Positions 1,495-57,520 of a DNA stretch of 64,000 nucleotides are shown here, in pieces (within the stretch, counting starts at the first letter, position 1; the number at the start of each line of letters is the position of its first letter). The notes beneath the pieces were generated by a model, which saw only the letters and a list, made by a program, of their open reading frames with translations, did no database searches and had not been told where the DNA came from. Source of the DNA: a virus (Duplodnaviria; Caudoviricetes); IMG/VR virus record IMGVR_UViG_3300020577_004283, positions 4,987 through 68,986 of that record; one strand, 5' to 3'. The position numbers and the translations under genes are program-made.

Positions 1495-2830
1495 GCTGGA
1501 GGCAGTGGCCCGAGGCGAAATTGATCGTCTGATGGTCTGCATGCCTCCGGGCCATGCAAAGTCCGTGTATTGCTCTACACTTTTCCCATCATGGTGGTTT
1601 GCCCAGCCGGGTCTTGAACGAACAGCCATGATAACCGTTTCGCACACGAGTGAGCTTGCTGAAACGTTCGGTCGTCGTGTCCGAAACCTCGTGGCCAGGG
1701 AACACGAAATTCTCGGTTATTCTTTGCAACAGGACAGCAAAGCCGCTGGTCGGTGGGAGACCAGCAAAGGTGGCGAATACTACGCTGCCGGCATCGGTGG
1801 TGGTATCACTGGTCGTCGTGCCGATTTGATCGTGATCGATGATCCGGTTAAAGGCAGCGATGAAGCAAAGAGCGAGAAGACTCGGCAACGAGTTTGGGAC
1901 TACTATCGGTCTGAGCTATACACACGACTAAAGCCTGGTGGTCGTATCATCCTCGTCATGACTCGGTGGGATGAGGATGATCTTGGTGGTCGTTTGTTAA
2001 ACGAAATGGGGTCCGGAGGCGATGACTGGGATCTTCTGAAGCTCCCCGCATTGGCCGAGGACCCACGAGACTTTTCGGACGACGCTACAGAGACCTGGGA
2101 GCCTGACCCCTTGGGCCGTCAGCCGGGCGAGGCGCTGTGGCCCGACTGGGAAAGTCGTGAAGCACTTTTGAGGAAACGATTGGCTGTCGGTGAGCTTGAC
2201 TGGTTCGCATTGTTTCAGCAACGGCCCAAGCCACCACAAGGTGTTCTGTTCAACACCGACAAGATCACAACGCTCACGAACCGACCGAACCTGCGATCCA
2301 TCGTTCGCTCATGGGACCTGGCAGCGACTGAACAACAGGGGACCAATGATCCTGACTGGACAGTCGGGACTCTCCTCGGGCGAACCACAGATGATCGTTA
2401 CGTTGTCTTGGATGTTGTCCGGGAACGGTTGCCTCCGAATGGTGTTCTTGATCTGATCACTTCGGTGGCTGACAATGATGGTCGCACTGTCCCGATCCGT
2501 TTGCCAGAGGACCCTGGTCAAGCAGGCAAGAGCCAATCTGCGTTTATGGTCGCCAAGTTGGCTGGTCATAAAGTGACCATGGAGCGTGAAACTGGCAGCA
2601 AAGTCGTGCGAGCCACTCCGTTTATCACACAGGTGAACGTTGGCAACGTGTCCATGCTCGAAGCTCGGTGGAACAAAGGCTTCATCTCCGAGCTTCGCGA
2701 TTTTCCGAACGGCCGCAAAGATGACCAGGTAGACTCCGTCTCTGGGGCGTTCAACATTGTCGGAACGAGACAGCCTGGGTTCCGCATCAGCCCAGACGTT
2801 GTCAGATCTATGGGGATGGCACGCCGATGA
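1298..2830 (+). CDS. terL: terminase large subunit (true start probably somewhat downstream of 1298)
   Basis: Walker A-like MPPGHAKS, GITGRRADLIVIDDP Walker B, VMTRW motif, C-terminal nuclease SWDLA...DDQVDS. Confidence 0.95.
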   Translation: MGMPMSLALMSTSPQSLRKSEIARALQIERELWRRECRRKMTSWAIQALSIQALTPAPHHALLSTKLEAVARGEIDRLMVCMPPGHAKSVYCSTLFPSWWFAQPGLERTAMITVSHTSELAETFGRRVRNLVAREHEILGYSLQQDSKAAGRWETSKGGEYYAAGIGGGITGRRADLIVIDDPVKGSDEAKSEKTRQRVWDYYRSELYTRLKPGGRIILVMTRWDEDDLGGRLLNEMGSGGDDWDLLKLPALAEDPRDFSDDATETWEPDPLGRQPGEALWPDWESREALLRKRLAVGELDWFALFQQRPKPPQGVLFNTDKITTLTNRPNLRSIVRSWDLAATEQQGTNDPDWTVGTLLGRTTDDRYVVLDVVRERLPPNGVLDLITSVADNDGRTVPIRLPEDPGQAGKSQSAFMVAKLAGHKVTMERETGSKVVRATPFITQVNVGNVSMLEARWNKGFISELRDFPNGRKDDQVDSVSGAFNIVGTRQPGFRISPDVVRSMGMARR

Positions 2831-42442: not shown

Positions 42443-42913
42443 CTATAGAAGAGGCGGCTGGCCGAAGTTATTCGGGTGTTCCCGTAACCGGTTCAGCACC
42501 GAACCCCAGGCCCAGTTTCCTGGGCCATCAAACCAGCGGCCAGCGACACAATGTGGCGGGAGCAGCAGACCCCTGTCACAAAGCTCGCGGACGTAGAGTC
42601 CAGGGACCAACCACAGCTCGTCAGTGGCCTCTCCCCTTCTCGGGCCAGCATCATGTTGTTTGCGAACAGCGACCCAAACACGACCACCGGCTCGGCTCCT
42701 TTTGTGGATCCAACCAACTTGCTCAGCGCTCAGGCCAACGGCCCATGCGCTGGTCGCCTTGTATTCGATCCAGAACTCAACCCCATCAAAGCAACCATTC
42801 GAGTCAGGGATGCCGGCACCAACACCCCCGGACTCAATTGCCTGCCAATGAATATCTGGGAGCCAGCTCTTGAACAGACCCCGCAGCCCATTGTCGCTTT
42901 TCCGTTTGGTCAC
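42443..42913 (-). CDS. PD-(D/E)xK nuclease, VRR-NUC / Holliday junction resolvase-like
   Basis: GAGIPDSNG...FWIEYKA...Q..WIHKR..AGG motif; GTG 42913. Confidence 0.8.
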   Translation of the reverse strand: MTKRKSDNGLRGLFKSWLPDIHWQAIESGGVGAGIPDSNGCFDGVEFWIEYKATSAWAVGLSAEQVGWIHKRSRAGGRVWVAVRKQHDAGPRRGEATDELWLVPGLYVRELCDRGLLLPPHCVAGRWFDGPGNWAWGSVLNRLREHPNNFGQPPLL

Positions 42914-43452
42914 TTCTTCTTGGGCTCTTTCTCTTTCTCGGTCGGAGGCTCCTCGACACGGGGCGGACCCACCAGATCTGACAAATCGGCAGGAACCCAG
43001 CCGGGGGGTTTCGTGATCTTGAAGGTGCCGTCGGGAGCGGGTTCCTTCATCATGTTGTGGACGTGGACACGGCGCCACGCTTCGTAAAGATCGTGGCCGT
43101 GCTTATCGGCAGTCCCGACGGCGACGTAAATGCTGTCGACCTCGGCGTCCAGGATCTGCTCCTGGTTGTTGGCTTCGATAGCGTCGGCCAGCTCGGTCGC
43201 TTCCTCGATCTGGAACTTACCACGAAACTGAGCTTCGTCCAGCGGCATCGCACGCGGCGGGCCGTCGTACGACTGGTTGAACTTCTTGTGAAATTCACGG
43301 ACGTCAGCCAGAAAGTCCGGCGGCTCGGACCACAGTAGACTGTTGATCAGGTTCAGGATGACGTCCACCGGGCGATCGTCTCGGTTGACCACCAAGACAT
43401 ACGAGTCGGTAGATTCGCCAGCGTGGACGTGAGACAGGGACACGATTTTCAT
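42910..43452 (-). CDS. MazG-like all-alpha NTP pyrophosphohydrolase (dUTPase/dTTPase candidate)
   Basis: VREFHKKF...EEATEL..A......ILDAEVDSIYV..G...AWRRVH..NM.K...KP.GW motif. Confidence 0.8.
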   Translation of the reverse strand: MKIVSLSHVHAGESTDSYVLVVNRDDRPVDVILNLINSLLWSEPPDFLADVREFHKKFNQSYDGPPRAMPLDEAQFRGKFQIEEATELADAIEANNQEQILDAEVDSIYVAVGTADKHGHDLYEAWRRVHVHNMMKEPAPDGTFKITKPPGWVPADLSDLVGPPRVEEPPTEKEKEPKKK

Positions 43453-45419
43453 GCGGCTTCTTTCATTGCGATGACCTGATCCCAGGTCTTTTTGGCATTA
43501 CCCCAATTGGTGCCAAACTCCAGATCAACACGGACTGGCACATGGAGTTTGACAACGTTCGTCATGATCTCGTTAACTTCTAGCGCATCTTTATACCTCC
43601 CGAATGAAAAGTCCAGTTCGTCGTGCATCTGGACCAAAGGAATGTAGCCAACCTTGTAGCACTCGACCATCGCCATCTTTGTCTGGCGGGCAGCGCTCCC
43701 CTGGATCAAACCGTTCATCGCCTGATAGGCAAAGGCTCGTTCCAGTGGTTGGTTTGGCCAACGGGCAAGAGCCTGCTCCCAACGAGCGAAGCTCCCTGAC
43801 TCACGACCTTTCTTCGGCTGCCACAGATTGAAGTGACGGCGGGTGCCGTCAATCATCCTGATGAAGCCGAAGTCTTTGGCACGTCGCTCGCAAAACTGAG
43901 CAAGGCCACGGACCCAAGGGACACGACCGTGGTAATCTTCCATCAGAATTTCGCCGTCGGCCACCGATATTCCGAGAGATCGCGCCAACTTCTCGATCCC
44001 CATTCGGTAGAACAGGCCAAGGTTGATGTCTTTGGCTACACGTCGTGGTTTGCCGGTCATTTCGGCAACCATTTGATGAAAGTCAGCATCTGGACCTTTG
44101 TCGCGATAATAGGCTATCGCGTCTTCGGTCCCGTCCATGCGGATACCCAACTTTTGTGCATGTTTGGCACTAACGTGTGCGTAGTGGACAGACAGTCTGG
44201 GTTCTTGCTGGCTGTAGTCAGGTGCCCCCCAAATCTCACCATCTTCTGGGTAGAACAACCCACGAATGATCGGGGCCAGTTCAGGGTCTCTGGATGGCAT
44301 CTGCTGAAGGGGTGGGTTTGCGTATGAGAACCTTGTAGTTTTGGCGCCGAGTTGTTTAATCTCGGCGTGGATGCGGCCACGATGTTCAAAGCCGAGAATG
44401 TAGTTTCCTATGAATTTTTCACCGAGGTCCTCAAGCTGTCTGGCTTTACGGACATACCCTGCTAAATCGCTGTTGTTGCTTTCTAGCCACTCTTTCGTGA
44501 AAGATGGTTGCCTGGTCTTCAGTGTTCTAGGATACGATATACCTTCAAGATCAAAGATCTGAGCCAGGGACGTCGGAGATCGGAGATCGTCAATTGTTGT
44601 AGTTCGACGCCAGGGGTTTTTGATCTTCTTAAGTTCTTCCTGGGTCATGACACGGATATCAGCTCTGGCTTTCTCGCCGGCTTTCGTGGATATCCGTATG
44701 CCACGTTCCCTCATTTTGTGGAGAACAGGAACCAAAGCCATCTCAGTCTTGTAGGATTGCTCTAGATGTTCGTCCTGGATCTTGTTGCGTAGGTGGCGAC
44801 CCAACTGCAGCGTCGCCACCGCGTCTTGCTCGGCGTAGGGTCCAACGTAGCGGGCTGGGATTTTCCAGAGGCCATGCTTGATGCTGCCATCACGTTTGAC
44901 AATACCGAAGGCGGCGGCTGCATCGTCTAGCAGTCTCTCATCTTTTCCAGGGAAACCTTCCCTCGCGCAGCAGTCGTCAAGGTTGTAGGTCGGCCAATCT
45001 TCGTCAAGGAGACGAGCCATGGTGCCAGCGTCATCAGCTTTTTCCGGCCACACTTTGCAGCCTTCAGCGAGAAGCCAACCCATGTCGTACATAATGTTGA
45101 AGAACACAACACGATTGTTCCGTAGAAGGTCTTCGACCCAGCGTATGACCGAACCTAACTCACGGTTTTCAGTGTCGGGGTGCCGAATTGGCACATAGAT
45201 TGATTGGTTGTTCCAAGCAACGGAAACACCGAGAAGGTAGCCATCATTGTAGACCCAGCCTGGACCTTTCTCTTTATCCAGACCACCATCTTTTGTTTCA
45301 GTGTCTAGACCGATTTCCAAACCACGAAGGTCCGGAAGGTTCCCTGTGGGGGGCACCCACAGGGACTTCGGCATGAACATCTGCAGCTGACCTTCAACGG
45401 AAAGTGTTCGGCCAGCCAT
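43449..45419 (-). CDS. family A DNA polymerase with a 3'-5' exonuclease domain
   Basis: GLDTET, FFNIMYD, YAEQDA exo motifs; PDYSQQEPR (motif A), AKDINLGLFYRMG (motif B), QMHDEL (motif C). Confidence 0.95.
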   Translation of the reverse strand: MAGRTLSVEGQLQMFMPKSLWVPPTGNLPDLRGLEIGLDTETKDGGLDKEKGPGWVYNDGYLLGVSVAWNNQSIYVPIRHPDTENRELGSVIRWVEDLLRNNRVVFFNIMYDMGWLLAEGCKVWPEKADDAGTMARLLDEDWPTYNLDDCCAREGFPGKDERLLDDAAAAFGIVKRDGSIKHGLWKIPARYVGPYAEQDAVATLQLGRHLRNKIQDEHLEQSYKTEMALVPVLHKMRERGIRISTKAGEKARADIRVMTQEELKKIKNPWRRTTTIDDLRSPTSLAQIFDLEGISYPRTLKTRQPSFTKEWLESNNSDLAGYVRKARQLEDLGEKFIGNYILGFEHRGRIHAEIKQLGAKTTRFSYANPPLQQMPSRDPELAPIIRGLFYPEDGEIWGAPDYSQQEPRLSVHYAHVSAKHAQKLGIRMDGTEDAIAYYRDKGPDADFHQMVAEMTGKPRRVAKDINLGLFYRMGIEKLARSLGISVADGEILMEDYHGRVPWVRGLAQFCERRAKDFGFIRMIDGTRRHFNLWQPKKGRESGSFARWEQALARWPNQPLERAFAYQAMNGLIQGSAARQTKMAMVECYKVGYIPLVQMHDELDFSFGRYKDALEVNEIMTNVVKLHVPVRVDLEFGTNWGNAKKTWDQVIAMKEAA

Positions 45420-45424
45420 CTGGA

Positions 45425-46111
45425 TCAGAACCGCGGAACGCTGCGGGCGAGGCGGCGAGACAACCGAGCCTGCTCAGCCCCCCGGTTGTTCTCCCACTCG
45501 TCGCTCCGTCGAGCTTCGGGCGGGTCTTCCGGGGGTGGTGCCGGAGCGAACGCGATCGTGTCGGTGATGGTGTCGCGAGTGATCGTTTCCCAATGGTAGA
45601 CGGCGATGACTCTCAGCTCTTCCTCGCTGAGCGGGTGCTGAATGAAGATGCTGTTGATGGTTTTCATCACCCCAAACATCGTGTCGAAGTCAGCCCACTT
45701 GGTGTGCTTTCCGAGGAAAGCATCCATGTTCTTGCTTCGAGCGAGTAGGATGTTCTTGGCGGATTCGTCGGACACCGTTGTGTTCCACACTGGTGCCGGC
45801 CGGATGTCCTGAATGCTCTCGGTTGACAGTGCGTCAGTCTCCATGGTCATCATCGCGTAGACGGCCAGGTCAGCCAGACTGTCGGCATGGCCGCCGCGAT
45901 GTAGCGACCGAGCATACCGGGTCAGCTTAGTCACCAGATGGGCGAACAGGATCAGCCGACGATAGTCGTTCGGCTTGGACATCTGGATACCATTGGGGAG
46001 CATGGCGTCCATAACGGTGCCAAACTCCATGTAGTTTCCACCGTAATCAGCGTTCCGCTTTTCGAACAGATCGGCGGCATCGCGAAGAAGTTCGGGGACA
46101 GTCTTGGTCAT
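45425..46111 (-). CDS. DUF1599 / Nmad1-like nucleotide-modification-associated protein with a C-terminal extension
   Basis: KRNADYG...KLTRY...DSLADLAVYAMM motif. Confidence 0.7.
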   Translation of the reverse strand: MTKTVPELLRDAADLFEKRNADYGGNYMEFGTVMDAMLPNGIQMSKPNDYRRLILFAHLVTKLTRYARSLHRGGHADSLADLAVYAMMTMETDALSTESIQDIRPAPVWNTTVSDESAKNILLARSKNMDAFLGKHTKWADFDTMFGVMKTINSIFIQHPLSEEELRVIAVYHWETITRDTITDTIAFAPAPPPEDPPEARRSDEWENNRGAEQARLSRRLARSVPRF

Positions 46112-46647
46112 AGAGCCTCCAGAGTGAAAAGTCGTGTGCCGACGTAGAACTTGATCCGCTCTTGTTGGGCGGAGTCTGGCCAGCTGATCATCTCGCCTTG
46201 GATGAACGGCATGACTGCACCGAACACCGGCCTCGCGTATCGGTTGCCGATATTCAGCTGTTCGATTGCCCATTCGAACATCTCCATCATGTCGGCTAGC
46301 TTGATCAGTCGCCGCCAATGTTCATCCAAAGACTCAGGCGTTGACAGCAACCATTTGCTGGACATGTCGATCCGGGCGTGGATCTCCAACTCGTCCATGA
46401 CCTTCTTCAGACTGGGATTGTCTTTCTTGATCGGATAGGGGAGATCACCAGTCTTGATCTCACCCACGTCATGAAACAACGCGTGACTGATCACGTAGCC
46501 TGGTGCGTCAGGCGCAATCGCGAGGACGATGCGCGCGACGTTCCAGCCGTGCTCGGCGACAGTCTGCTGACCAACCTGCGGCCACGTGTGGTAACGGACC
46601 ACACGACCTGCCAGGCGCGGATCAGTCCTGATGTCATCAGGGTTCAT
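46108..46647 (-). CDS. HD-domain 5'-deoxynucleotidase (YfbR-like)
   Basis: VVRYHT...TVAEH...HALFHDVGEIKTGDLP...IKLADMME. Confidence 0.88.
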   Translation of the reverse strand: MNPDDIRTDPRLAGRVVRYHTWPQVGQQTVAEHGWNVARIVLAIAPDAPGYVISHALFHDVGEIKTGDLPYPIKKDNPSLKKVMDELEIHARIDMSSKWLLSTPESLDEHWRRLIKLADMMEMFEWAIEQLNIGNRYARPVFGAVMPFIQGEMISWPDSAQQERIKFYVGTRLFTLEAL

Positions 46648-47675
46648 CAGATCTTGCCCCGCTTCTTGAGCCACTGTCGGGCAGCGAACCGCCAGTCGGT
46701 CGGGACGACCTTGTTGATGTCGTCCTCGGTGATTTTCACCGAGGTCTTGAACATCCAGTGAAGCCGAGCCATCGGGACGAGAAGGTCCTGGAACGGCATC
46801 GGTGCCGACCAAGGAACTTCCTGATAGCTGTGTTGACGTGGTTCACGGAGCCACCGCTTTAACTCGTCGTCGAAATCGCCAGGATGGACACCTGCGAACA
46901 ACGGGGTGGTAGACACGATCTTCTTGGAGTAGAGATCGTTGACCGGTTCGTCGGGATCGAACTTCCCCATCGTCGCTTCGTAGATGTGGGCGTTGTTGGA
47001 AACGGTTGTCATCGATCCAACACCGACGTCCAGCCGAAAGGCCAGATACTCCATCAAGACAGAGAAGTGAACCGCGTTCGCACCGAACAACCCCCACACA
47101 GCGTCGTTCGAGCGACAGCAGACGGTCATGTCCAGATGGTAGAGATACCCACTGAGACTTCCGTCGCCAACCAACGGTCCGGTGGGCCGGAGTCTCAGGT
47201 AGATGTGGGTGTTGCAGGGGATGTCCTTCTTGCTGGCACCGAGGTCGGCGTCAGCGTCCCACATCGCAATGACTGCTCGACGGCTGGTCGGGTCATAGTC
47301 CAGCAGTTCGATTGCCCGTTCGATCTGGTCCATCTCGAAGTGATTTCGCCAACGGTGGCCGTAAGCTCCCCACAACAGACCATCATCTTCTTCGGCGAAC
47401 CTGGACCCGAAGTCGGAGATGTATTGGTTTAGAAACGATGGGTCGTTCTGCCCGCCCAGCATCCAGAACGATTCGAACAGATGGAAGAACGGGTTGGCGT
47501 CACGATGCGCTGAGAACAGAACCCGTTCGGTCGGACGATGCAGGGCAGTGGTGAACGGTTCCGGGTGGACAATGGCCGGACCGTTCCGGCTATCCTCGCG
47601 GACGCCTTCAGTGCTGATCACGATCATTCCGTGGTAGAATGCCGTGTTGACGTTCGGATGACTGATAACTCGCAT
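46647..47675 (-). CDS. thymidylate-synthase-family enzyme, probable dUMP hydroxymethyltransferase
   Basis: Catalytic IPCN, RSNDAVWGLFGAN (Asn at the dUMP-specificity position), NNAHIY; divergent from ThyA and embedded among modification genes. Confidence 0.8.
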   Translation of the reverse strand: MRVISHPNVNTAFYHGMIVISTEGVREDSRNGPAIVHPEPFTTALHRPTERVLFSAHRDANPFFHLFESFWMLGGQNDPSFLNQYISDFGSRFAEEDDGLLWGAYGHRWRNHFEMDQIERAIELLDYDPTSRRAVIAMWDADADLGASKKDIPCNTHIYLRLRPTGPLVGDGSLSGYLYHLDMTVCCRSNDAVWGLFGANAVHFSVLMEYLAFRLDVGVGSMTTVSNNAHIYEATMGKFDPDEPVNDLYSKKIVSTTPLFAGVHPGDFDDELKRWLREPRQHSYQEVPWSAPMPFQDLLVPMARLHWMFKTSVKITEDDINKVVPTDWRFAARQWLKKRGKI

Positions 47676-47713
47676 GGTTACTCCTGGCTGATAAGCGAGA
47701 TACGTAGTATAGC

Positions 47714-48172
47714 CTAGTCGGCGCTGGCTGAAAACGCTTTAGCCTCCTCAATCACCTGTGCAAGAAATGCTCCGGTTGCAACACGATTGGTCGGGTTGCG
47801 ATAGAACATACTTTCAAGTGAAATCTTCGGGATCAGGACCCAAGGCTTTTCCTTAGACCACACGAATGGGTCATATCGGTGGTTCATCGCCGCACCGGTC
47901 TTCGCCCCGATAAGGACAACGATACGGTTCAGCAGCATCGGTGTGAGGAACGCGGCCGATGACCGTGAAACCACATCGTCGGGAAACTTCCGGATAGTCG
48001 GATCCAGAACGTTCCGTTGAGTGCCCGATCTCCAGTCAGTCATGGAGATACCGGTTTCTTCGTGCACCATACTCCAGAGAATGTTGCCCGCCGACTGAAG
48101 CGGTTCAGGGGCGAAGTAGTCCTTCGCCACCTGCTGATCCGGGTCGCTATAACCCAGGAAGTAGACTCTCAA
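47714..48172 (-). CDS. hypothetical protein within the modification operon
   Basis: TTG 48172 overlaps the glycosyltransferase stop; no family recognised. Confidence 0.55.
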   Translation of the reverse strand: MRVYFLGYSDPDQQVAKDYFAPEPLQSAGNILWSMVHEETGISMTDWRSGTQRNVLDPTIRKFPDDVVSRSSAAFLTPMLLNRIVVLIGAKTGAAMNHRYDPFVWSKEKPWVLIPKISLESMFYRNPTNRVATGAFLAQVIEEAKAFSASAD

Positions 48173-48978
48173 GCGTTCCTCGCGTCCCAGCCGAGAGCCT
48201 TCTTCCAATGGATCTGAACCTCCAGCCGGTCCTTCATGAACCCGGTCTTGTTGTGCTTCTGCACGATGGAGACCAGGCCTGGATGAAGTTCCTTCAGCCG
48301 ATAGGCTGCCTGATCAGACAGCTCCACGTCACGATAATCAGCGCACCCGCCCGGTGCGCCGCTGAGCTGGCTGTGGCACCAGTAGCCGACGCAAAGGTTC
48401 GGGCGTCCTTTCCGGAGGCTCTGCAGGGTGCTCTCGAGGTCGGAGCGGAGGATACTCCGGGCGTAGTCAATCTGGGCAAAGTCTTCGTTGCGCCAACCGA
48501 ACACGCACATGATCCTGGTGCATTCACGGATGCAGGTCTCGGGTCCGCCGATCGGGAACGCGGTGTTGTTCATGTAGCGCGGAGACACGCCGACATGACT
48601 CCAGGTCCCTGTCTTCAGTTTCTCTTCGACCCAGTCCAGCATCTCGCCGACCTCGTCAGGCACACACTTCTTGGTCTGATGAGTCTCGGGCGATTTGCGA
48701 ACCTCGAACCGAACATCGTCGTCCATCTGCAGATGATACGGTTCGCCGGCTGCGATGGACAGGTTGCCGATGTGCTGCCGTTTCCGGGCCAACAGCATAT
48801 CGTTCGGGCAGGCCACGATCTTCACAGGAAAGTCCTTGACGGCTTTCTTGTAGAATTCGACTTGATCTTCCGGTGGGAAGAGCGTAGTCGCCTGTAGATA
48901 TCGATCAGGCAACTGGACCATCAGCTTGCCGATCACGTCCCACCGAGAGCGGACCGGAATATTGATAGACATTGTCAT
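48169..48978 (-). CDS. GT-A-fold glycosyltransferase, TAGT/GREB1(JGT)-like
   Basis: RKRQHI...LQMDDDVRF DxD motif; DLESTLQSLRKG; SGAPGGCADYR; LKELHPGLV. Confidence 0.7.
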   Translation of the reverse strand: MTMSINIPVRSRWDVIGKLMVQLPDRYLQATTLFPPEDQVEFYKKAVKDFPVKIVACPNDMLLARKRQHIGNLSIAAGEPYHLQMDDDVRFEVRKSPETHQTKKCVPDEVGEMLDWVEEKLKTGTWSHVGVSPRYMNNTAFPIGGPETCIRECTRIMCVFGWRNEDFAQIDYARSILRSDLESTLQSLRKGRPNLCVGYWCHSQLSGAPGGCADYRDVELSDQAAYRLKELHPGLVSIVQKHNKTGFMKDRLEVQIHWKKALGWDARNA

Positions 48979-48998
48979 GATGTGCCTCCTGGCAGATG

Positions 48999-49925
48999 TT
49001 ACTTCGGCGGGTGATAACGGTTTCTCGGCACCCCCTGTCCGAGTCTCACACGCTCATATTTGTCAAACTCACAGAGCGTATGTTCGACAGTCCGCATGTC
49101 CCAGCTCTGCCATTCAGCCGGCCAGTGCTTGGGATCTTGGGACAATTTCAGTAGCTCCTGCATCTCTCGGACGCTGTCTGCTTCACGAATGTTGATGCGG
49201 TGCTGACGACGGGGGATCGCGTTCGGATTGCTCCTGCCGTGCACACGATGCAGACCCCGCTTCGCCCCCGGACCAGCGTGAGCCCATGTCATGATGTCGG
49301 AGGCTCCGCGGAGAACCTCAGTGTAGATCAGGTCACATGCGATTTCGTATGCAGTGAAGCCGCCCTGTCCGGGGGAACACTCGATCCACTCGCTGAGATG
49401 TTGAACTGAGCGGATGTGTGGGTAAGTGATGTAACTCTCGGCCAACTCACGCCAAGGGCGGAGATAGAACGCGCGGACACTGAACAGGATCCCGTCCAGC
49501 TTCTTCATTCCGTCGGTGCTGCGGAGCATATACGCACCGGTCACGTAAGGACCCTTGGGGTAGGTGATCTCCAGCGCCGACTTGATCGCGGACGTGTCTC
49601 CGTTCTTCGCGATGAAGTGCTCCCACGGTGTCAGCTTCGTGAGAAGATCGGGTTGGTTGAAGATCACTTCCCCGATCTCTATCCGATTGAACCAGCGGAA
49701 CAGTGTCGTCGCCATGAAAACTTCAGGCGTGCCGTCCAACTTCTCGCGAACGTTTCGTCTGAACCAATCGGTCGTCTTGTCCAGTTCACGGAACACATTC
49801 GTGAACTTGTAGGTGTTGAAATACTCGTTCTCGGACCACGGCCACGACTTTCCGGCCTGTCGGCTCAGATAGATATTGTGGCGTTCCCGTGCAAAGGCGA
49901 AGAACCTGTAGACGCCATCGGTCAT
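48999..49925 (-). CDS. aGPT-Pplase1 / 5-hmdU DNA kinase helical-domain family protein
   Basis: ERHNIY..RQAG..WPW......YKFTNVFRELD...LFRWFNR...GPGAKRGL...EHTLCEFDKY motifs. Confidence 0.85.
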   Translation of the reverse strand: MTDGVYRFFAFARERHNIYLSRQAGKSWPWSENEYFNTYKFTNVFRELDKTTDWFRRNVREKLDGTPEVFMATTLFRWFNRIEIGEVIFNQPDLLTKLTPWEHFIAKNGDTSAIKSALEITYPKGPYVTGAYMLRSTDGMKKLDGILFSVRAFYLRPWRELAESYITYPHIRSVQHLSEWIECSPGQGGFTAYEIACDLIYTEVLRGASDIMTWAHAGPGAKRGLHRVHGRSNPNAIPRRQHRINIREADSVREMQELLKLSQDPKHWPAEWQSWDMRTVEHTLCEFDKYERVRLGQGVPRNRYHPPK

Positions 49926-49939
49926 TTTTCTCTCCTATG

Positions 49940-49971
49940 AAAAACCCGCCGTGTCTGGCACACGACGGGTT
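49940..49971 (-). terminator. intrinsic terminator immediately upstream of the modification operon
   Basis: On the - strand: AACCCGTCGTGT-gccag-ACACGGCGGG-TTTTT. Confidence 0.65.
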
Positions 49972-49998
49972 CTCCAGCCGATCAACGCAACGTCAGGG

Positions 49999-50856
49999 TC
50001 AGGCGTCCAGATCCTCCTCGACCGCCGCAGCGGCTTCCTCGGTCGGGGCGTCCGCGGTCGCGGTCGCAGCCGGCGGGGTCAGGATGATATGGCCACGTTC
50101 CGCCATCGCCTTGATCGAACCCGGAGACAGAACCTCGACCTTCAGATTCTCCTCCACCGTCTTGCCGTCCAGGATGGCCAGGAAACGATCCGAACGTCCG
50201 GTGTTCGGACGATACGGGTTGTTGTCGGCGCCGAACGGCTTGCCGTTGACGACAGCGTAGGTGATCACGGTCTTCGGGTTCAGACCACCGGTCACGGTCG
50301 TCTTGACCGCACCGTCGCCGCTCGTCTTCGATGCCTTCGCCGCTTCCTTCGCCGCAGCCTTCTCGGCCTTCTCCTTGGCCCTCGCCTCGGCCGCCGCCGC
50401 CTTGGCCTTCGTCTTCTCGGCCATGGCCTGGGCCTTCGCCGCAGCCTTCTCCTCGGCCGTCATGGCCGCACCAGTCGTCGCTTCCACAGTCATTCGTCTC
50501 TTCTCCATTTGGCCGCGATCATTCGCGATCAGTGAACACAGGGCATCAAAGTCAGTAGGGAGTGGTTGAGCTTTCTTGAACAACCCATCCCAGATCCGTG
50601 GCAACATCCCACGTCGAGCGGATCTCTCCTCGACAGGGGTCAACGTGTCCAGGGCATCGAGGATATGGTTGGCCTCCACCCCAGCGATCTTCATGATGAC
50701 CGCCCACTCGAATCTGGCGTATGCCTCAAAAACCTCGTCAGGGTCACCAAAGATTGGATCGCCGTATTGGATGAGGGGGTGGACAAAGGCTTCCTCTTTC
50801 GTCTGGAAGACGTAGGGAACACCGATACCGCCCTTAGTGATTGCTACACATGCCAT
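49999..50856 (-). CDS. Ala/Lys-rich protein with a C-terminal NP..G.TV domain (possible internal start MTVEATT)
   Basis: NNPYRPNTGRSDRFLAILDGKTVEE; AKAKA-rich, histone-like segment. Confidence 0.65.
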   Translation of the reverse strand: MACVAITKGGIGVPYVFQTKEEAFVHPLIQYGDPIFGDPDEVFEAYARFEWAVIMKIAGVEANHILDALDTLTPVEERSARRGMLPRIWDGLFKKAQPLPTDFDALCSLIANDRGQMEKRRMTVEATTGAAMTAEEKAAAKAQAMAEKTKAKAAAAEARAKEKAEKAAAKEAAKASKTSGDGAVKTTVTGGLNPKTVITYAVVNGKPFGADNNPYRPNTGRSDRFLAILDGKTVEENLKVEVLSPGSIKAMAERGHIILTPPAATATADAPTEEAAAAVEEDLDA

Positions 50857-52647: not shown

Positions 52648-53255
52648 TTCGGCTCCTCTGGCGGATTGAGAGTTTTTAGGATGCCACGATGCACATATCG
52701 GCATGCATATACGTCTGCCAATGCATCGTGGTTGTTGACGAGCGGCTTCTTGGTGAAGAACTGATACGCCTCCGTCAGTTTCGGAGCCTTGTATCCGTCG
52801 ATCGTGTGGCTGCCTCCGGACGGTATCTTCATGACCTTGGCGGCGTTGATCATGGTGCAGTATTCTTCAGGCCACACCGGCGGAGGCAGTTGCTGCTGGT
52901 TGCAGGCTCGCTCGATCATACCGATGTCGAATTGAATGTTGTGGGCCACCACTCGGTCAGCATAACCAACCCAACGACTGAGCATGTGCAAGATGGTGTC
53001 AGGAGCTTCACCGAACCTTTCACACATCTCGTCTGTGACTCCGTGTTTGGCCGTGCACCGTTCGGTGATCAAATTCTTTCTGATCCCGACCCACTTTGTT
53101 TGGCTGATAATCGCCGACAACGTGGATATCACTCGGCCCTGAGTATAGCTGAGGACCGCCGCTACTTGACAGATCAATGGCTGCCCAGGGTCAGTCAACG
53201 ATGTTCCGTTGATGACGTAATCGGACGATTCGGTGTCAATGTAAAGACTGATCAT
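52644..53255 (-). CDS. DEDDh 3'-5' exonuclease (DnaQ-like)
   Basis: YIDTES, VAHNIQFD and HDALADV motifs. Confidence 0.9.
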   Translation of the reverse strand: MISLYIDTESSDYVINGTSLTDPGQPLICQVAAVLSYTQGRVISTLSAIISQTKWVGIRKNLITERCTAKHGVTDEMCERFGEAPDTILHMLSRWVGYADRVVAHNIQFDIGMIERACNQQQLPPPVWPEEYCTMINAAKVMKIPSGGSHTIDGYKAPKLTEAYQFFTKKPLVNNHDALADVYACRYVHRGILKTLNPPEEPK

Positions 53256-53929
53256 CAGTCGTCTCCGAAATGACTGTAGGAATGGCTGTCGTCAAAACCT
53301 CCACCACCGTTCGCCGACTTACGACAAGAGTCGCACATACGGTTTTTCTTGCGGTCTTTGGTGAAGAATGGCATTCTGCAAGTGATGCACGGAATCTGTT
53401 CACGTGCCGCTGTTTTCGCGACGTTGGTTGGCGTCCGGCGGTTCATCATTCGCCGGATCTTGGCGTAGATTTCGACATGGGACCGACCAGGCACCAGCGT
53501 GTAATACCCTGTACCTTGGTCAGTCCCGCCTTGGCTCACGTAGTTTGAGACAATCGCAAGCTCTTCTTTGCTCCACTTGCCTTTGTTGCCAACTTGTTCT
53601 CTCATGAGGATAGCTCTCCTGATCCTGGCGTAAATCTCTTCGGGTGAACGATGGGGAACCAAACCGCTGTAGGCGTGCTCTTCCAGCGATCCGTTGTGTC
53701 TGACGTAATCTGAAACGATCTTCAGTTCTCGTTTAGACCAGTTATGGCGGTGTGGGCCACGCCTCATCACACCAAACTTTAAGTTCAGTGCCCGAGCGAT
53801 GGCTCGCACAGCATCCAGTGAACGGGTTGGGATTTTCGCCCCGGTCTGCCGATAGTCCAGACCATCCCTCACGCATTCACGGAGGGTGGCTATTTCTTCA
53901 TCAGACCACGAAGGACCAAACCTAGTCAT
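53255..53929 (-). CDS. three Myb/SANT-like repeats plus a C4 Zn finger; putative transcription regulator
   Basis: WSDEE / WSKRE / WSKEE...RS repeats; CITC...F...RMCDSC. Confidence 0.7.
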   Translation of the reverse strand: MTRFGPSWSDEEIATLRECVRDGLDYRQTGAKIPTRSLDAVRAIARALNLKFGVMRRGPHRHNWSKRELKIVSDYVRHNGSLEEHAYSGLVPHRSPEEIYARIRRAILMREQVGNKGKWSKEELAIVSNYVSQGGTDQGTGYYTLVPGRSHVEIYAKIRRMMNRRTPTNVAKTAAREQIPCITCRMPFFTKDRKKNRMCDSCRKSANGGGGFDDSHSYSHFGDD

Positions 53930-53939
53930 CAGTCTTCTC

Positions 53940-55484
53940 CTACAACGGACTCTCGTCGTGTTGTCTCAGATCATGACGGACCTGCTCCCAAGAGAACATA
54001 TCGCTTTTCAGTATCCACACGTTGATGTTCTTGCCTTTAACCCAAAATTGCTGGGTATCACCGCCAAGTTCACGGATACGGCTCGTCATCCATGTGCGTA
54101 ACGATCCACCACGCTCACCAGTAGAAAACTTGGCCCGGTCGAGCGCTTGTTCCAGGTCACGGAGCCTGAAATACACCAGTCGTGCCTCTTCGTCATGCCA
54201 CGGTTTACCTAACAGTATCTCATCTTTCGTTTCAGCCTTGTGACGGTCAGTGAGAAACTGCTCCAAGACTTCCCCAAACTTACCCCGGATGCCCGACTCC
54301 TTGGGTGCCTCGATTGTTGTAGCTGACTCCACGATCTCCTGAACACTCCGGGTCCAGGTCTGCCGGGGGTATTCGGGTATGACCTGTCGCAGCTGTATCA
54401 GAGTCGCAAGCTGAAACTCGTGGGAGGACATAAGTTGTCCAGCAGAGACCTCAACCGTCCCGCCTGTCTTAAGAACGACGAAGAAGACAGGAGGGTCCGT
54501 CTCGAGGATGGATACGCTCTCAAGGAGAGTGGCTTCTCCGCCACTACCAACCCCATGGGGCCTGGTTCTACATATTGCAACATTACAACAAGAGACGATG
54601 GGCTGATCGCGGCAGCGATAGTTGTAGTCTTTCCGGCGTAGTCCACGAACACATGAACTGACCTCCGCCGCTGCCAGCGGTGGCGTGATATACTTTTGGT
54701 TCCATTCCTCAAGTAACTGCTCCCACCCGTCGGGCCGCATTTTCTTGGCAAGAACGCCGAGGTTCAGTAGACCGTTGTTGCGGGTCCCAGGCGGGAACCC
54801 TATGCCGGCCAACATCTCAAGACACGGAGGACCGGCTGCAAAGTCGTCTATGCGGCGTCGGAGAACTAGCGCCTCCAGTTGTGCCTGGGTAAGTCTGGCA
54901 CCCTCAGCGGCCTCTATAAAGCTCTCTACGGACATACCCCGCCCGTCAGCCCGGACCGCATACCTGTTGGTCTTGTCGCCCCCATAATACGGCATGTTCA
55001 GCCAGGACCCAAGATCGCCTCGGTCTATCAGAACTGCTTCCTGTTTGGGGAATATCTCTGAAGACCCGTGACCGATCAGCGCCGCAAGCTCACGTAGCCG
55101 GCCGATCACTACCGAGGCTGGTATAGGCTCCTTGAAAAAGATGTAGATATGAGCACCACCGCTTTTCGTTCTACAAACGAAAGCCGGTATGCGAGCATCA
55201 AGAAGGACTTTTACAAGATCAGCCGGGTCAATGTCATATACGTCAACATCGACACCACCCCACATACAGGTTCCGTCTTCACGGATCGGGACGATACCCA
55301 ACGGGCGACTACCGTCTAGGTGCTTTTCCCATAACTCTCGTGTGACAGGCTCCCGCAGTGTTCGGGCGGTCTTCTTGATTTCTTTCTTAGGACCGCTACC
55401 TGTCTCTTCGGTCCCGTATGTTCCATGCGATCTTGCCGCTCCGGCAAATAACCGCCAGAATCGTTCTGCGATTGACGGACCCAC
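53940..55484 (-). CDS. AEP-type primase / prim-pol
   Basis: GVDVD, RTKSGGAHIYIFF, EIFPKQ, LNMPY, PPCL...RNNGL and C...PI...C...C motifs. Confidence 0.85.
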   Translation of the reverse strand: MGPSIAERFWRLFAGAARSHGTYGTEETGSGPKKEIKKTARTLREPVTRELWEKHLDGSRPLGIVPIREDGTCMWGGVDVDVYDIDPADLVKVLLDARIPAFVCRTKSGGAHIYIFFKEPIPASVVIGRLRELAALIGHGSSEIFPKQEAVLIDRGDLGSWLNMPYYGGDKTNRYAVRADGRGMSVESFIEAAEGARLTQAQLEALVLRRRIDDFAAGPPCLEMLAGIGFPPGTRNNGLLNLGVLAKKMRPDGWEQLLEEWNQKYITPPLAAAEVSSCVRGLRRKDYNYRCRDQPIVSCCNVAICRTRPHGVGSGGEATLLESVSILETDPPVFFVVLKTGGTVEVSAGQLMSSHEFQLATLIQLRQVIPEYPRQTWTRSVQEIVESATTIEAPKESGIRGKFGEVLEQFLTDRHKAETKDEILLGKPWHDEEARLVYFRLRDLEQALDRAKFSTGERGGSLRTWMTSRIRELGGDTQQFWVKGKNINVWILKSDMFSWEQVRHDLRQHDESPL

Positions 55485-55538: not shown

Positions 55539-56435
55539 TCAGAGCGGGCTGTCGTCGCCCTCGCCAGGGTCCTCGGCCGACCCGTTGATCGTGGTGGCGG
55601 CGTCGTCATCGGGCGGAGTCGCGGCCTTCAACTCGCCGGCCATGGCCAGGTTGAAGAACTTCTTTGCTTCTTCATACGCATCGCGTTGTTCCGCCGTGAC
55701 GAAACCCTCGTCCTCGACGGCCAGCGAATACCAGTCGCCGCGCTCGTTCTGCTGCCAGAACGTGCGGAGGCGAACCACCGTGGCGAACGATGGTGCGATG
55801 ATCAGACCGTTGCGGCCGCGGAGCTTCTTGTTCCGCAGCATCGTGTTCCAGGCTCGGTGCGTCTGCAGACCCGTCGACGACAGGCCGAGAACGACAGCCT
55901 CGAGCGTATCGACCATCACCAGATAGTGATAGGCGGTCGTCACCAGCTGGTGGCCATTCGGCAGCATGCGGATCGTGCGTTTACCGGTGGGGTCCTGAGG
56001 GTTGGGGACCTCCATGACCTCCTTCAGCAGAGGGGTGTCGATCGGATGCTGCGCGACAAACCCACCGCCGGCTGCACGAGGGATCCACTCGACCTCGTAC
56101 ATATCGGCATGAGCCTGCAACGCCAAAGGACCGGTGCCAGGGTCTTCAGCCTTGATCAGCCGACGGCTGGCCGTGTTGTACAGCAAACCCGGCTCGGCGC
56201 CTTCGACGTATGCCGGGTCCTTCTTGTTGACCTGAGGAGAGGTCTTCTGCAGGACACGAAGAAACGGAATGACGTTCTCTTCGCGGCGGTCGCTGGTGCC
56301 GGCACCAGCATACTGCTCCATGTCATCCGCGAGGTCCATCGGGATCATCGCGTTGGAGCCGATCACCTGAATGCCCTGCGGGGCAGGCGGTGTTTCGGTC
56401 TGCACGGTTGTCGTCTCTTCGTGTTTCTTTGCCAT
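55539..56435 (-). CDS. probable single-stranded DNA-binding protein
   Basis: PFLRVLQKTSPQV...GAEPG, NERGDWY motif and acidic C-terminal tail (...DDSPL). Confidence 0.7.
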   Translation of the reverse strand: MAKKHEETTTVQTETPPAPQGIQVIGSNAMIPMDLADDMEQYAGAGTSDRREENVIPFLRVLQKTSPQVNKKDPAYVEGAEPGLLYNTASRRLIKAEDPGTGPLALQAHADMYEVEWIPRAAGGGFVAQHPIDTPLLKEVMEVPNPQDPTGKRTIRMLPNGHQLVTTAYHYLVMVDTLEAVVLGLSSTGLQTHRAWNTMLRNKKLRGRNGLIIAPSFATVVRLRTFWQQNERGDWYSLAVEDEGFVTAEQRDAYEEAKKFFNLAMAGELKAATPPDDDAATTINGSAEDPGEGDDSPL

Positions 56436-56449
56436 GATAGTTTCCTTGG

Positions 56450-56638
56450 TTACTGTGTGAACTTCGCTGAACATTCCTGGAACTTGGTCAACGCATTGTC
56501 CAGGACGGTCTGGGCATCAGCCCTTGCGGTGTTGGCAGCACGAGCTGCTTGCACGGCAGCTGCCAAGTTGGTACGAGCCAACGTGACAGCGTCAGCGGCA
56601 TCTTTCAGTTGCTGACTAGGAGTTGGATCGGCCATCAT
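56450..56638 (-). CDS. small Ala-rich coiled-coil protein
   Basis: 62-aa ORF in operon. Confidence 0.5.
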   Translation of the reverse strand: MMADPTPSQQLKDAADAVTLARTNLAAAVQAARAANTARADAQTVLDNALTKFQECSAKFTQ

Positions 56639-56639
56639 T

Positions 56640-56840
56640 TCACCTATGGATGCTTGGTGGATACACGGACGTGGATCTGGATTGGCTGTTCACCCCCATT
56701 TGATACATGACCAACAGAAAGAAAATGGTTATCGCAAATCGCAAGGTGTTGTCAGGAATGATCCCCCACACGATGGCGAGAACGATAACAACAGCAGTGA
56801 TCGGCCAAAAGTGGGTTGGCTCGAAGACGACTGCGTTCAC
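56640..56840 (-). CDS. small membrane protein
   Basis: Two hydrophobic segments. Confidence 0.5.
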   Translation of the reverse strand: MNAVVFEPTHFWPITAVVIVLAIVWGIIPDNTLRFAITIFFLLVMYQMGVNSQSRSTSVYPPSIHR

Positions 56841-57520
56841 GCGGGCTTGCCCTTCCGAGTTTTCTTCATCTTCGGAGGCTTCCGCTTAACGACCTTGCAG
56901 ACACGACCAACAAACGCCCCGAGAAGACCCAGCTCGATCTTGGGTTTGTTGGTTTCTGGTGCGTGCGGATCGATCGGTGTTTCAACAACGTCTTTGACGA
57001 ACGTCGTGAGACTACGCCAATTGACGGACATGTCCAGGCTGGTGGCTGCGTCAACACCGTGCTTCTGCAGCCAGGAGTTGACCAGCTCGGTCAGCTTGTG
57101 AGCCTTGTCCACGTCCTCTTTCGGGAACGAAATGGAAAGCTCGGACTTGATCAGATCGCCACCACCGAGCGCTTCCAGATGGGCAAAGGCTTTCGCCTTG
57201 TCATCTTCAGCCCAATCGGCTTTGATGCTGGCATGGTAATAGTTCTGCACGACAATGTCGACGCTGGCACCAGGGATACCGACAATGTCGGTCTGAGCCT
57301 GATCAAACATCTCGGGCAGAACACGAGTGGCGAGCTGATGGCGGCGAGACGTGAGCCGGTCCAGAAGGGCCGAGGCTCGCTCAACCATATCGTCCAGCTT
57401 CACAAGTTCTTCAGCCTTGGCGACGATCTTTGCCATCGGGCTGTTGGGGTTGACGGCATCGGCCGTTATTCGGTTGGCTTCAGCGTCACTGGAAAAAAGA
57501 TCTTCCATCGACTGCGACAT
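56837..57520 (-). CDS. conserved replication-region protein
   Basis: RVLPEMF...AFAHLE.LG.GDLIK...VNWRSL.TFVK pattern, usually found next to SSB in PolA-encoding phages. Confidence 0.65.
   Translation of the reverse strand: MSQSMEDLFSSDAEANRITADAVNPNSPMAKIVAKAEELVKLDDMVERASALLDRLTSRRHQLATRVLPEMFDQAQTDIVGIPGASVDIVVQNYYHASIKADWAEDDKAKAFAHLEALGGGDLIKSELSISFPKEDVDKAHKLTELVNSWLQKHGVDAATSLDMSVNWRSLTTFVKDVVETPIDPHAPETNKPKIELGLLGAFVGRVCKVVKRKPPKMKKTRKGKPA

Follow-up and report, generated by a model that had tools for sequence, protein, structure and literature searches.

A kinase-free phage operon predicted to couple hydroxymethyluracil synthesis to DNA glycosylation

Phages such as PaMx11 and M6, and also ViI, PhiW-14 and SP10, carry clusters for thymidine hypermodification that combine a dUMP hydroxymethylase, a 5-hydroxymethyldeoxyuridine (5-hmdU) DNA kinase, an amino-acid:DNA transferase (ADDT, or aGPT-Pplase2) and tailoring enzymes. 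To our knowledge, a DNA kinase is used by every characterised thymine-hypermodifying phage. Sugars are attached to DNA pyrimidines in other systems. T-even phages form glucosyl-hydroxymethylcytosine (glucosyl-hmC) through a hydroxymethylase of the thymidylate-synthase (TS) family that acts at the nucleotide level, polymerase incorporation and glycosylation of the DNA, and base J of kinetoplastids, the product of JBP and JGT, carries its sugar on the hydroxymethyl group of uracil in DNA. Here we analyse a minus-strand operon in a 64,000-nucleotide (nt) stretch of viral DNA (hereafter the window), which comprises bases 4987-68986 of a single 68,986-bp IMG/VR record (IMGVR_UViG_3300020577_004283) from an uncultivated phage. 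The operon combines a TS homologue, a glycosyltransferase (GT) of the TAGT family and an HMUDK_hel/aGPT-Pplase1 protein. We consider it moderately probable, from gene content and conserved residues, that the virion DNA carries glycosylated 5-hydroxymethyluracil (hmU): the hmU would be made before replication and then glycosylated directly in DNA, with no kinase, to a base-J-like product.

TAGT, aGPT-Pplase and Nmad domains were reportedly defined by Iyer et al. in 2013. The phage clusters in which a GT is associated with 5mYOX/TET enzymes (Burke 2021; Pyle 2024) and the T-dioxygenase clusters (PNAS 2026) resemble the window in directing a GT-A/TAGT enzyme to a hydroxymethylpyrimidine of DNA, but the products characterised for those clusters lie on 5-hydroxymethylcytosine (5hmC) made post-replicatively. 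According to Pyle et al., metagenomic GT-A hits split between 5mYOX and ThyS neighbours; in the accessible texts, the ThyS-linked, U-type branch to which the window belongs is counted by those surveys, not characterised. In the searchable literature we found no report that identifies what a ThyS + TAGT (U-type) cluster makes in DNA, and none of a characterised glycosyl-hmU phage. An initial reading of the window's letters, which proposed a thymidine-hypermodification operon (the original prediction), had likewise known of no biochemical characterisation of this combination, and our literature search found none. SP-15, YerA41 and Carin-5 were considered as glycosyl-hmU precedents and set aside, because their sugars are attached through a dihydroxypentyl linker, in what is a different system.

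Enzymes of the operon

The operon reads, in order, HMUDK_hel, GT, a 152-amino-acid (aa) protein, TS, an HD-domain protein, a 228-aa helical protein, a family A DNA polymerase (PolA) and MazG. Neighbouring genes either overlap at start and stop (ATGA or TTGA) or are 5-38 nt apart with a Shine-Dalgarno sequence, and the eight minus-strand genes, PolA included, form one translationally coupled operon. The genes named in the original prediction are present and co-directional on the minus strand, at the coordinates given here for each. CheckV estimates the completeness of the 68,986-bp record at 100%.

The TS homologue (46647..47675, minus strand; 342 aa; PF00303, 3e-17; phrog_5131, 4.6e-86) was aligned with HMMER to Escherichia coli ThyA and to MilA, a CMP hydroxymethylase, which identified Asp143, Cys146, Asp169 and Asn177 (E. 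coli numbering). The Asn of 'RSNDAVWGLFGAN', which the original prediction had read as dUMP-type, indeed falls on ThyA position 177, where MilA has Asp; in the protein's own numbering it is Asn200, and Asp151 occupies the position of Leu143. The catalytic Cys146 and the Arg166/Ser167/Asp169 core are present ('DIPCN' and 'RSND' aligned to ThyA) and invariant in 61 homologues. Asn177 goes with a uracil substrate, and a non-hydrophobic residue at 143 with hydroxymethylation, through attack by water, rather than methylation (PMC13326640). The signature 'KDxPCN ... RSND...N' is common to the TS of the window and those of CampHawk (SPO1-like), ViI, SP10 and PaMx11, phages whose DNA contains hmU or hmU derivatives (PMC8989533). 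Among phages, its closest relatives are the TS of M6-like and PaMx11-like Pseudomonas phages, to which it is about 41% identical along its full length. The 5-hydroxy-dCMP synthases of the RB69 gp48 type combine D169N with N177D (PMC13326640), and the window TS keeps both Asp169 and Asn177; the retained Asp169 excludes the 5-hydroxy-dCMP type, and the signature is not that of the dCMP type either. Its prediction as a dUMP hydroxymethylase that yields 5-hmdUMP is well supported by these residues.

The GT (48169..48978, minus strand; 269 aa; phrog_842, 1.3e-24) scores 30.3 bits against TAGT (PF20691; curated cut-off 27.5, E = 4.9e-7, residues 3-190), and TAGT is its sole match in a Pfam-A scan at E≤0.01. 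An exhaustive HMMER search returned relatives in 1118 cluster representatives at E≤1e-3. All 80 of the 80 aligned homologues match TAGT (best 1.6e-25), and the orthologue of phage PhiJL001 reaches 181 bits. The AlphaFold model (predicted local distance difference test, pLDDT, 97.4) has a GT-A fold, whose nearest solved structures by Foldseek (probability 1.0) are GnT-I, POMGnT1, the GT domain of LH3 and TarP. The motifs MDDD (D86-D88) and GAPGGC (G210-G211-C212), quoted in the original prediction, are both there and invariant or nearly so among homologues; the D86-D87-D88 triplet, the DDD metal/nucleoside diphosphate (NDP)-sugar motif, is invariant. The label 'JGT-like', also given to this protein, survives at the level of the GT-A fold, and Pfam places the enzyme in TAGT alone. 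TAGT is the family of phage 5hmC DNA glycosyltransferases (10.1101/2023.12.21.572611), and the T6 beta-glucosyl-HMC alpha-glucosyltransferase belongs to it (PMC13390438). As we found no genes for sugar nucleotides in the phage genome, the donor is likely an NDP-sugar of the host. We predict from its family and neighbours that the GT is a DNA hmU glycosyltransferase.

The enzymes of the kinase route were sought throughout the 68,986-bp genome. There is no P-loop 5-hmdU DNA kinase, and PaMx11 gp49 has no match at E≤10; the positive control, PaMx11 itself, was matched by this search, and the sole Walker A motif in the genome belongs to a UvrD helicase. A kinase domain split into the 285-aa gene upstream of the operon or another open reading frame (ORF) was rejected, as there is no Walker A motif and no family match. 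Neither ADDT/aGPT-Pplase2 (PF18724) nor TET/JBP dioxygenase (PF12851) gave a match at E≤1, and no radical SAM, C5-methyltransferase or dCMP deaminase gene and no pyridoxal phosphate (PLP) or FAD enzyme was found. The absence of TET/JBP, PLP and radical-SAM genes, noted initially for the window, therefore holds for the whole genome where tested. No phage deoxynucleoside monophosphate (dNMP) kinase is present either. With kinase and ADDT both absent, the characterised route of kinase, amino-acid transfer and tailoring (PMC8989533) cannot operate, and the 'activated intermediate' through which the original prediction allowed glycosylation to proceed is unsupported, since the genome has no kinase.

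The comparison with PaMx11 sharpens this picture. The backbone of HMUDK_hel, TS, HD, small protein and PolA is the same in both, in the same order; the M6/PaMx11 TS has the same active-site signature, their HMUDK_hel is about 40% identical to that of the window, and in those phages, as proposed here, modification is post-replicative and acts on hmU in DNA. However, PaMx11 carries an ADDT-FAD-acetyltransferase-kinase cassette where the window has the GT and a UDG-like protein. With a TAGT GT in the cassette position and no kinase, the hydroxyl is expected to be glycosylated, not phosphorylated and substituted. The proposal of a thymidine-hypermodification operon thus stands in so far as a TS of the dUMP-hydroxymethylase type and a TAGT GT are present, the GT in the cassette position; its JGT label is limited to the fold, and its activated intermediate is unsupported.

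Related loci and the HMUDK_hel protein

We surveyed 89 loci, comprising 80 IMG/VR loci from a pattern scan built on a 12-sequence GT alignment, loci from exact-protein look-up, four annotated phages and the window, and profiled them by iterated HMM searches over all ORFs. An IMG/VR pattern scan with a single GT sequence found nothing, and an alignment of 80 GT sequences was too diverse for patterns. In 76 of the 89 loci the GT has a TS homologue as its neighbour, and 75 loci contain HMUDK_hel. The grouping singled out in the original prediction recurs: GT, HMUDK_hel and TS occur together in 72/89 loci, of which 70 have no kinase, and the GTs of these triad loci fall into 33 clusters at 50% identity. 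The main gene orders are GT, HMUDK_hel, TS (36 loci) and HMUDK_hel, GT, TS (26 loci), so the linkage is not mere inheritance of a single arrangement. An HD gene adjoins TS in 49/89 loci. Asn177, the dUMP type, was found in 71 of 73 full-length TS neighbours. The exceptions, L036 and L037 (3342-8846, IMG/VR contigs), have the TS motif 'PYDIF' with Asp at 177, which suggests a cytosine version of the module.

The gene combination is neither rare nor new, being found in PhiJL001, in LuckyBarnes and in at least 70 IMG/VR contigs. The cultured alphaproteobacteria phage PhiJL001 (AY576273, Keylargovirus) resembles the window across gp19-gp28 in HMUDK_hel, TAGT GT, TS, HD and PolA, and differs in an Nmad5 gene between GT and TS and in the presence of a dCMP deaminase. 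The phage was sequenced in 2005, and in its record the gene beside the TS is annotated as a glucosyl transferase and the TS is compared with the dUMP hydroxymethylase of SPO1. In the cultured Brevibacterium phage LuckyBarnes, gp38-41 are TS, GT, GT and HMUDK_hel; unlike the window, this phage has two GTs and a longer TS. Both phages lack the kinase, as the window does, and their proteins are only 27-43% identical to the window's. The searchable literature yielded no DNA chemistry analysis of PhiJL001 or LuckyBarnes.

Some loci carry additional enzymes. L031 (4555-10831) is a hybrid with ADDT, P-loop kinase, HMUDK_hel, GT, a second HMUDK_hel and TS, and L073 (5467-12059) another, with HMUDK_hel, GT, kinase, GT, a UDG-like gene and TS; on this gene content, the kinase and sugar routes can coexist. 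In the closest large relatives, L005 (4722-9438) and L006, the GT is 44% identical to the window's, a radical SAM/SPASM enzyme follows directly after it, and a GNAT acetyltransferase lies upstream of HMUDK_hel. These extra enzymes would imply a further-tailored sugar or base in those phages.

The third member of the triad, HMUDK_hel/aGPT-Pplase1 (48999..49925, minus strand; 308 aa), matches PF18723 at 1.5e-44 (152.9 bits, over model positions 4-276 of 281), and its predicted structure (pLDDT 95.3) is similar to a helix-hairpin-helix (HhH) DNA-glycosylase fold. By VIA, the matches are DUF2419 (Z 10.6), PaMx11 gp46 (8z2m, Z 10.2) and OGG/Mag (Z 9-10); VIA Z values under 13 are weak for helical proteins, and all of these matches come from one superfamily. 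The fold is visible by VIA alone: Foldseek returned nothing at E≤0.001, and a phmmer search of Protein Data Bank (PDB) sequences gave a chance ribosomal match only. Cys285, Glu286 and Lys289 are invariant in 63/63 homologues, and hhalign sets Cys285 and Glu281 on Cys247 and Glu243 of PaMx11 gp46, a weak match (E = 0.034, probability 1.5%) to what are the catalytic residues of that enzyme (PMC11472151; PMC8989533). HMUDK_hel is a paralogue of the amino-acid:DNA transferases that has kept the nucleophilic Cys, and is probably an enzyme with covalent Cys chemistry on a 5-substituted uracil.

HMUDK_hel tracks the TS gene rather than the GT: loci without TS are also without HMUDK_hel, save two cut by contig ends, and the complete circular phage MW202897 has GT, TS and HD without it. 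Because MW202897 has GT and TS but no HMUDK_hel, the protein is probably not required for sugar transfer; judged by the gene content of that phage, TS plus GT would be the sufficient core. In M6, the gene that matches the HMUDK_hel family is, by position, gp55, and gp51 plus gp54 alone, without gp55, are enough to form N-alpha-GlyT in lysates (PMC8989533). As gp55 was unneeded in that reconstitution, the family has no assigned function.

Predicted pathway and rival explanations

In the pathway that we propose, the TS homologue, judged by its residues and homology, would convert dUMP to 5-hydroxymethyl-dUMP, and the HD nucleotidase and MazG would probably deplete competing dT/dU nucleotides (HD, for example, dTMP; MazG is a candidate for dTTP/dUTP). 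Host kinases would then make hmdUTP, and phage PolA would incorporate it in place of dTTP. Once the DNA is replicated, the GT would, on the grounds of its family and gene context, use an NDP-sugar of the host to glycosylate hmU in DNA directly at its 5-hydroxymethyl oxygen. This would yield a hexosyl-oxymethyl-uracil with a chemistry like that of base J, and the likely benefit would be protection from host nucleases. HMUDK_hel/aGPT-Pplase1 would probably carry out covalent chemistry on some hmU residues and would not be needed for the sugar transfer.

The hydroxyl would thus be made in the T-even way, by a nucleotide-level hydroxymethylase, and not in the kinetoplastid way, by a dioxygenase acting on DNA. 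The TAGT family, too, is common to the window and T6, but the pyrimidine differs, being U (Asn177) in the window and C (Asp177) in T-even phages; moreover, the T6 enzyme adds a second glucose to a sugar, whereas in the window one GT has to work on the hydroxyl of the base itself. The product class predicted here is that of base J, with a sugar on the uracil hydroxymethyl in DNA. The window differs from that system in that hmU would come from a TS homologue before replication instead of from a TET/JBP dioxygenase on DNA, in that its GT is TAGT by Pfam and not shown to be of the JGT/GREB1 type, and in that substitution would probably be in bulk, not a sparse epigenetic mark.

Direct glycosylation of hmU is favoured further by the absence of any other hydroxyl-generating or cytosine-modifying gene from a genome estimated to be complete. 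Several points weigh against it. Every step is read from sequence, in an uncultivated phage; phosphorylation of hmdUMP by the host is assumed, as there is no phage dNMP kinase; and the GT is only just over the TAGT cut-off (30.3 versus 27.5 bits), in a family whose best-known enzyme, that of T6, puts glucose on a sugar and not on the base. In L036 and L037 the GT and HMUDK_hel families of the window accompany a TS of the dCMP type (Asp177), so the module is not intrinsically U-specific. GT and HMUDK_hel are almost always neighbours, often with overlapping genes, which hints that the two may share one substrate; the product might then not be a simple O-glycoside.

The likeliest rival, which we regard as possible but unlikely, is a two-enzyme hypermodification in which the Cys of HMUDK_hel activates hmU without phosphorylation, or uses the glycosyl as leaving group, and installs another substituent. 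The GT would then decorate that substituent or supply the activating group, and the final base would not be plain O-glycosyl-hmU. The invariant Cys285-Glu286 and Lys289 (63/63 homologues), the hhalign placement of Cys285/Glu281 on the catalytic pair of gp46, the fold match to gp46 (Z 10.2) and the adjacency of GT and HMUDK_hel in at least 70 loci, in both orders, all speak for such chemistry. So does Ralstonia phage RP13, which has heavily modified DNA and carries aGPT-Pplase1 without a detectable kinase (10.1101/2025.03.26.645540). However, MW202897 carries GT and TS without HMUDK_hel, the hhalign match is weak, and hydroxide and glycoside are poor leaving groups. HMUDK_hel also adjoins TS in M6 and PaMx11, and M6 gp55 is not needed for N-alpha-GlyT in lysates (PMC8989533). 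We are more doubtful still that HMUDK_hel and GT constitute a second, kinase-independent route to hypermodified thymines, with Cys-dependent activation of hmU or its glycoside and a product other than a simple base-J-like O-glycoside. In that reading, HMUDK_hel might also be the enzyme that turns hmU into thymine after replication in M6- and PhiW-14-type phages, a step long unexplained.

It is improbable, in our estimation, that the GT acts away from DNA, on a host envelope glycan or protein, while the DNA contains hmU (or T). Phages commonly use GT-A enzymes on targets other than DNA, the closest solved structures belong to GTs that act on proteins and glycans, and the TAGT score of the window copy is marginal. 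Yet all 80 aligned homologues are TAGT, the GT stands beside TS in 76 of 89 loci, its gene is embedded in an operon for replication and nucleotide metabolism, where it overlaps the adjoining genes, and no membrane or secretion features were seen in the protein. Very improbable, finally, is another TS specificity (an ordinary dTMP synthase, a dCMP hydroxymethylase or a 5-hydroxy-dCMP synthase, with the sugar on cytosine as in T-even phages, RB69 and RL38JI): TS-family specificity is not provable from sequence, the characterised use of phage DNA GTs is cytosine glycosylation (PMC13326640; 10.1101/2023.12.21.572611) and L036 and L037 have a dCMP-type TS with the same partners, but position 177 is Asn not Asp, position 143 is Asp not Leu, Asp169 is kept, against D169N in 5-hydroxy-dCMP synthases (PMC13326640), and the genome has no C5-methyltransferase or TET gene.

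Genomic setting and significance

Plus-strand genes up to about 33.6 kb are structural, and the minus strand beyond carries replication and nucleotide-metabolism genes. An intrinsic-terminator-like hairpin with a U-run (49936..49976, minus strand) lies between the upstream 285-aa gene and the first gene of the operon; its fold, at -28.6 kcal/mol (z = -5.08), was equalled in stability by 0 of 200 shuffles, and it delimits the operon at its 5' end. The 285-aa protein itself (49999-50856, minus strand), encoded just upstream of this hairpin, is rich in Ala, Lys and Glu over a long central stretch and matches no family.

Between GT and TS, the gene of the 152-aa protein (47714..48172, minus strand; phrog_12275, 1.1e-5) has a TTG start at 48172 that overlaps the GT stop (TTGA). 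First listed as unknown, the protein can now be placed as a predicted divergent member of the UDG superfamily: PF03167 is carried by 24 of its 30 nearest clusters in the Atlas, and three of six homologues match a UDG Pfam family (best 3.7e-4). The window copy has no Pfam match and reads 'IPKISL' where the homologues of PhiJL001, L005, L009, L010 and L073 keep 'IPHPSG', so that the His of HPS is lost; the family profile had no meaningful match among PDB sequences. A UDG-like protein in an hmU operon could be a uracil/thymine excluder, or just a reader or binder.

Downstream of TS, the gene of the HD-domain, YfbR-like 5'-deoxynucleotidase (46108..46647, minus strand; about 179 aa; PF12917, 1.4e-13; PF13023, 7.2e-9) has its real start at 46647, an ATG that overlaps the TS stop (ATGA). 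It is followed by the gene of the 228-aa helical protein (45425..46111, minus strand; phrog_4889, 8.5e-17 over residues 70-160 of the long ORF). The name Nmad1 originally given to this protein was dropped: it has no Pfam match, the DUF1599 (Nmad1) model finds nothing in the genome at E≤10, PHROG similarity is the label's sole support, and its Atlas neighbours (0.84-0.87) are leads only. PolA, with a 3'-5' exonuclease domain (43449..45419, minus strand; PF00476, 4e-43; phrog_17, 2.6e-89), and the MazG-like nucleotide pyrophosphohydrolase (42910..43452, minus strand; PF01503, 4e-11; phrog_671, 1.3e-22) complete the operon, the MazG start overlapping the PolA stop (ATGA).

Farther upstream on the minus strand, a Myb/GcrA-like DNA-binding protein (53255-53929) adjoins an AEP-TOTE-type primase with a PriCT-like region (53940-55484); judging from the GcrA-like domain, the host may be an alphaproteobacterium, as that of PhiJL001 is. 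Two further minus-strand genes, at 55539-56474 and 56837-57520, encode homologues of gp34 and gp33 of Pseudanabaena phage Pam3 (PF23977, 4.7e-48; PF23984), a phage that also encodes an aGPT-Pplase1 homologue. Outside the window, locus L089 (G000:C1) has a 198-aa ORF (1662-2258, minus strand) with a weak nucleoside 2-deoxyribosyltransferase match (PF05014, E = 7e-5, below cut-off), possibly another nucleotide-pool enzyme. By megablast, the operon matched no phage record. Near-identical sequence occurs in sequencing runs of at least two studies, one labelled a riverine metagenome; the runs listed in that search are DNA runs only, from three studies, with no RNA run among them, and the run data kept are contigs only, which are uninformative on base chemistry.

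The window is one member of a recurrent thymidine-hypermodification variant and not a singular discovery. Its module is widespread (72/89 loci, 33 GT clusters), so such DNA could be common in environmental viromes. If the proposed pathway is true, phages make base-J-like glycosylated thymine in bulk by a route other than the kinetoplastid one, and a thymidine hypermodification that needs no DNA kinase would be added to those described. The symmetry with T-even phages would then be complete, with hmC plus sugar on one side and hmU plus sugar on the other, and effects would be expected on sensitivity to restriction and CRISPR, on sequencing-library bias and on hmU-labelling tools. The kinase-free setting also offers the cleanest genetic background in which to find the role of the aGPT-Pplase1 family, and because PhiJL001 and LuckyBarnes are cultured, the question can be tested directly.

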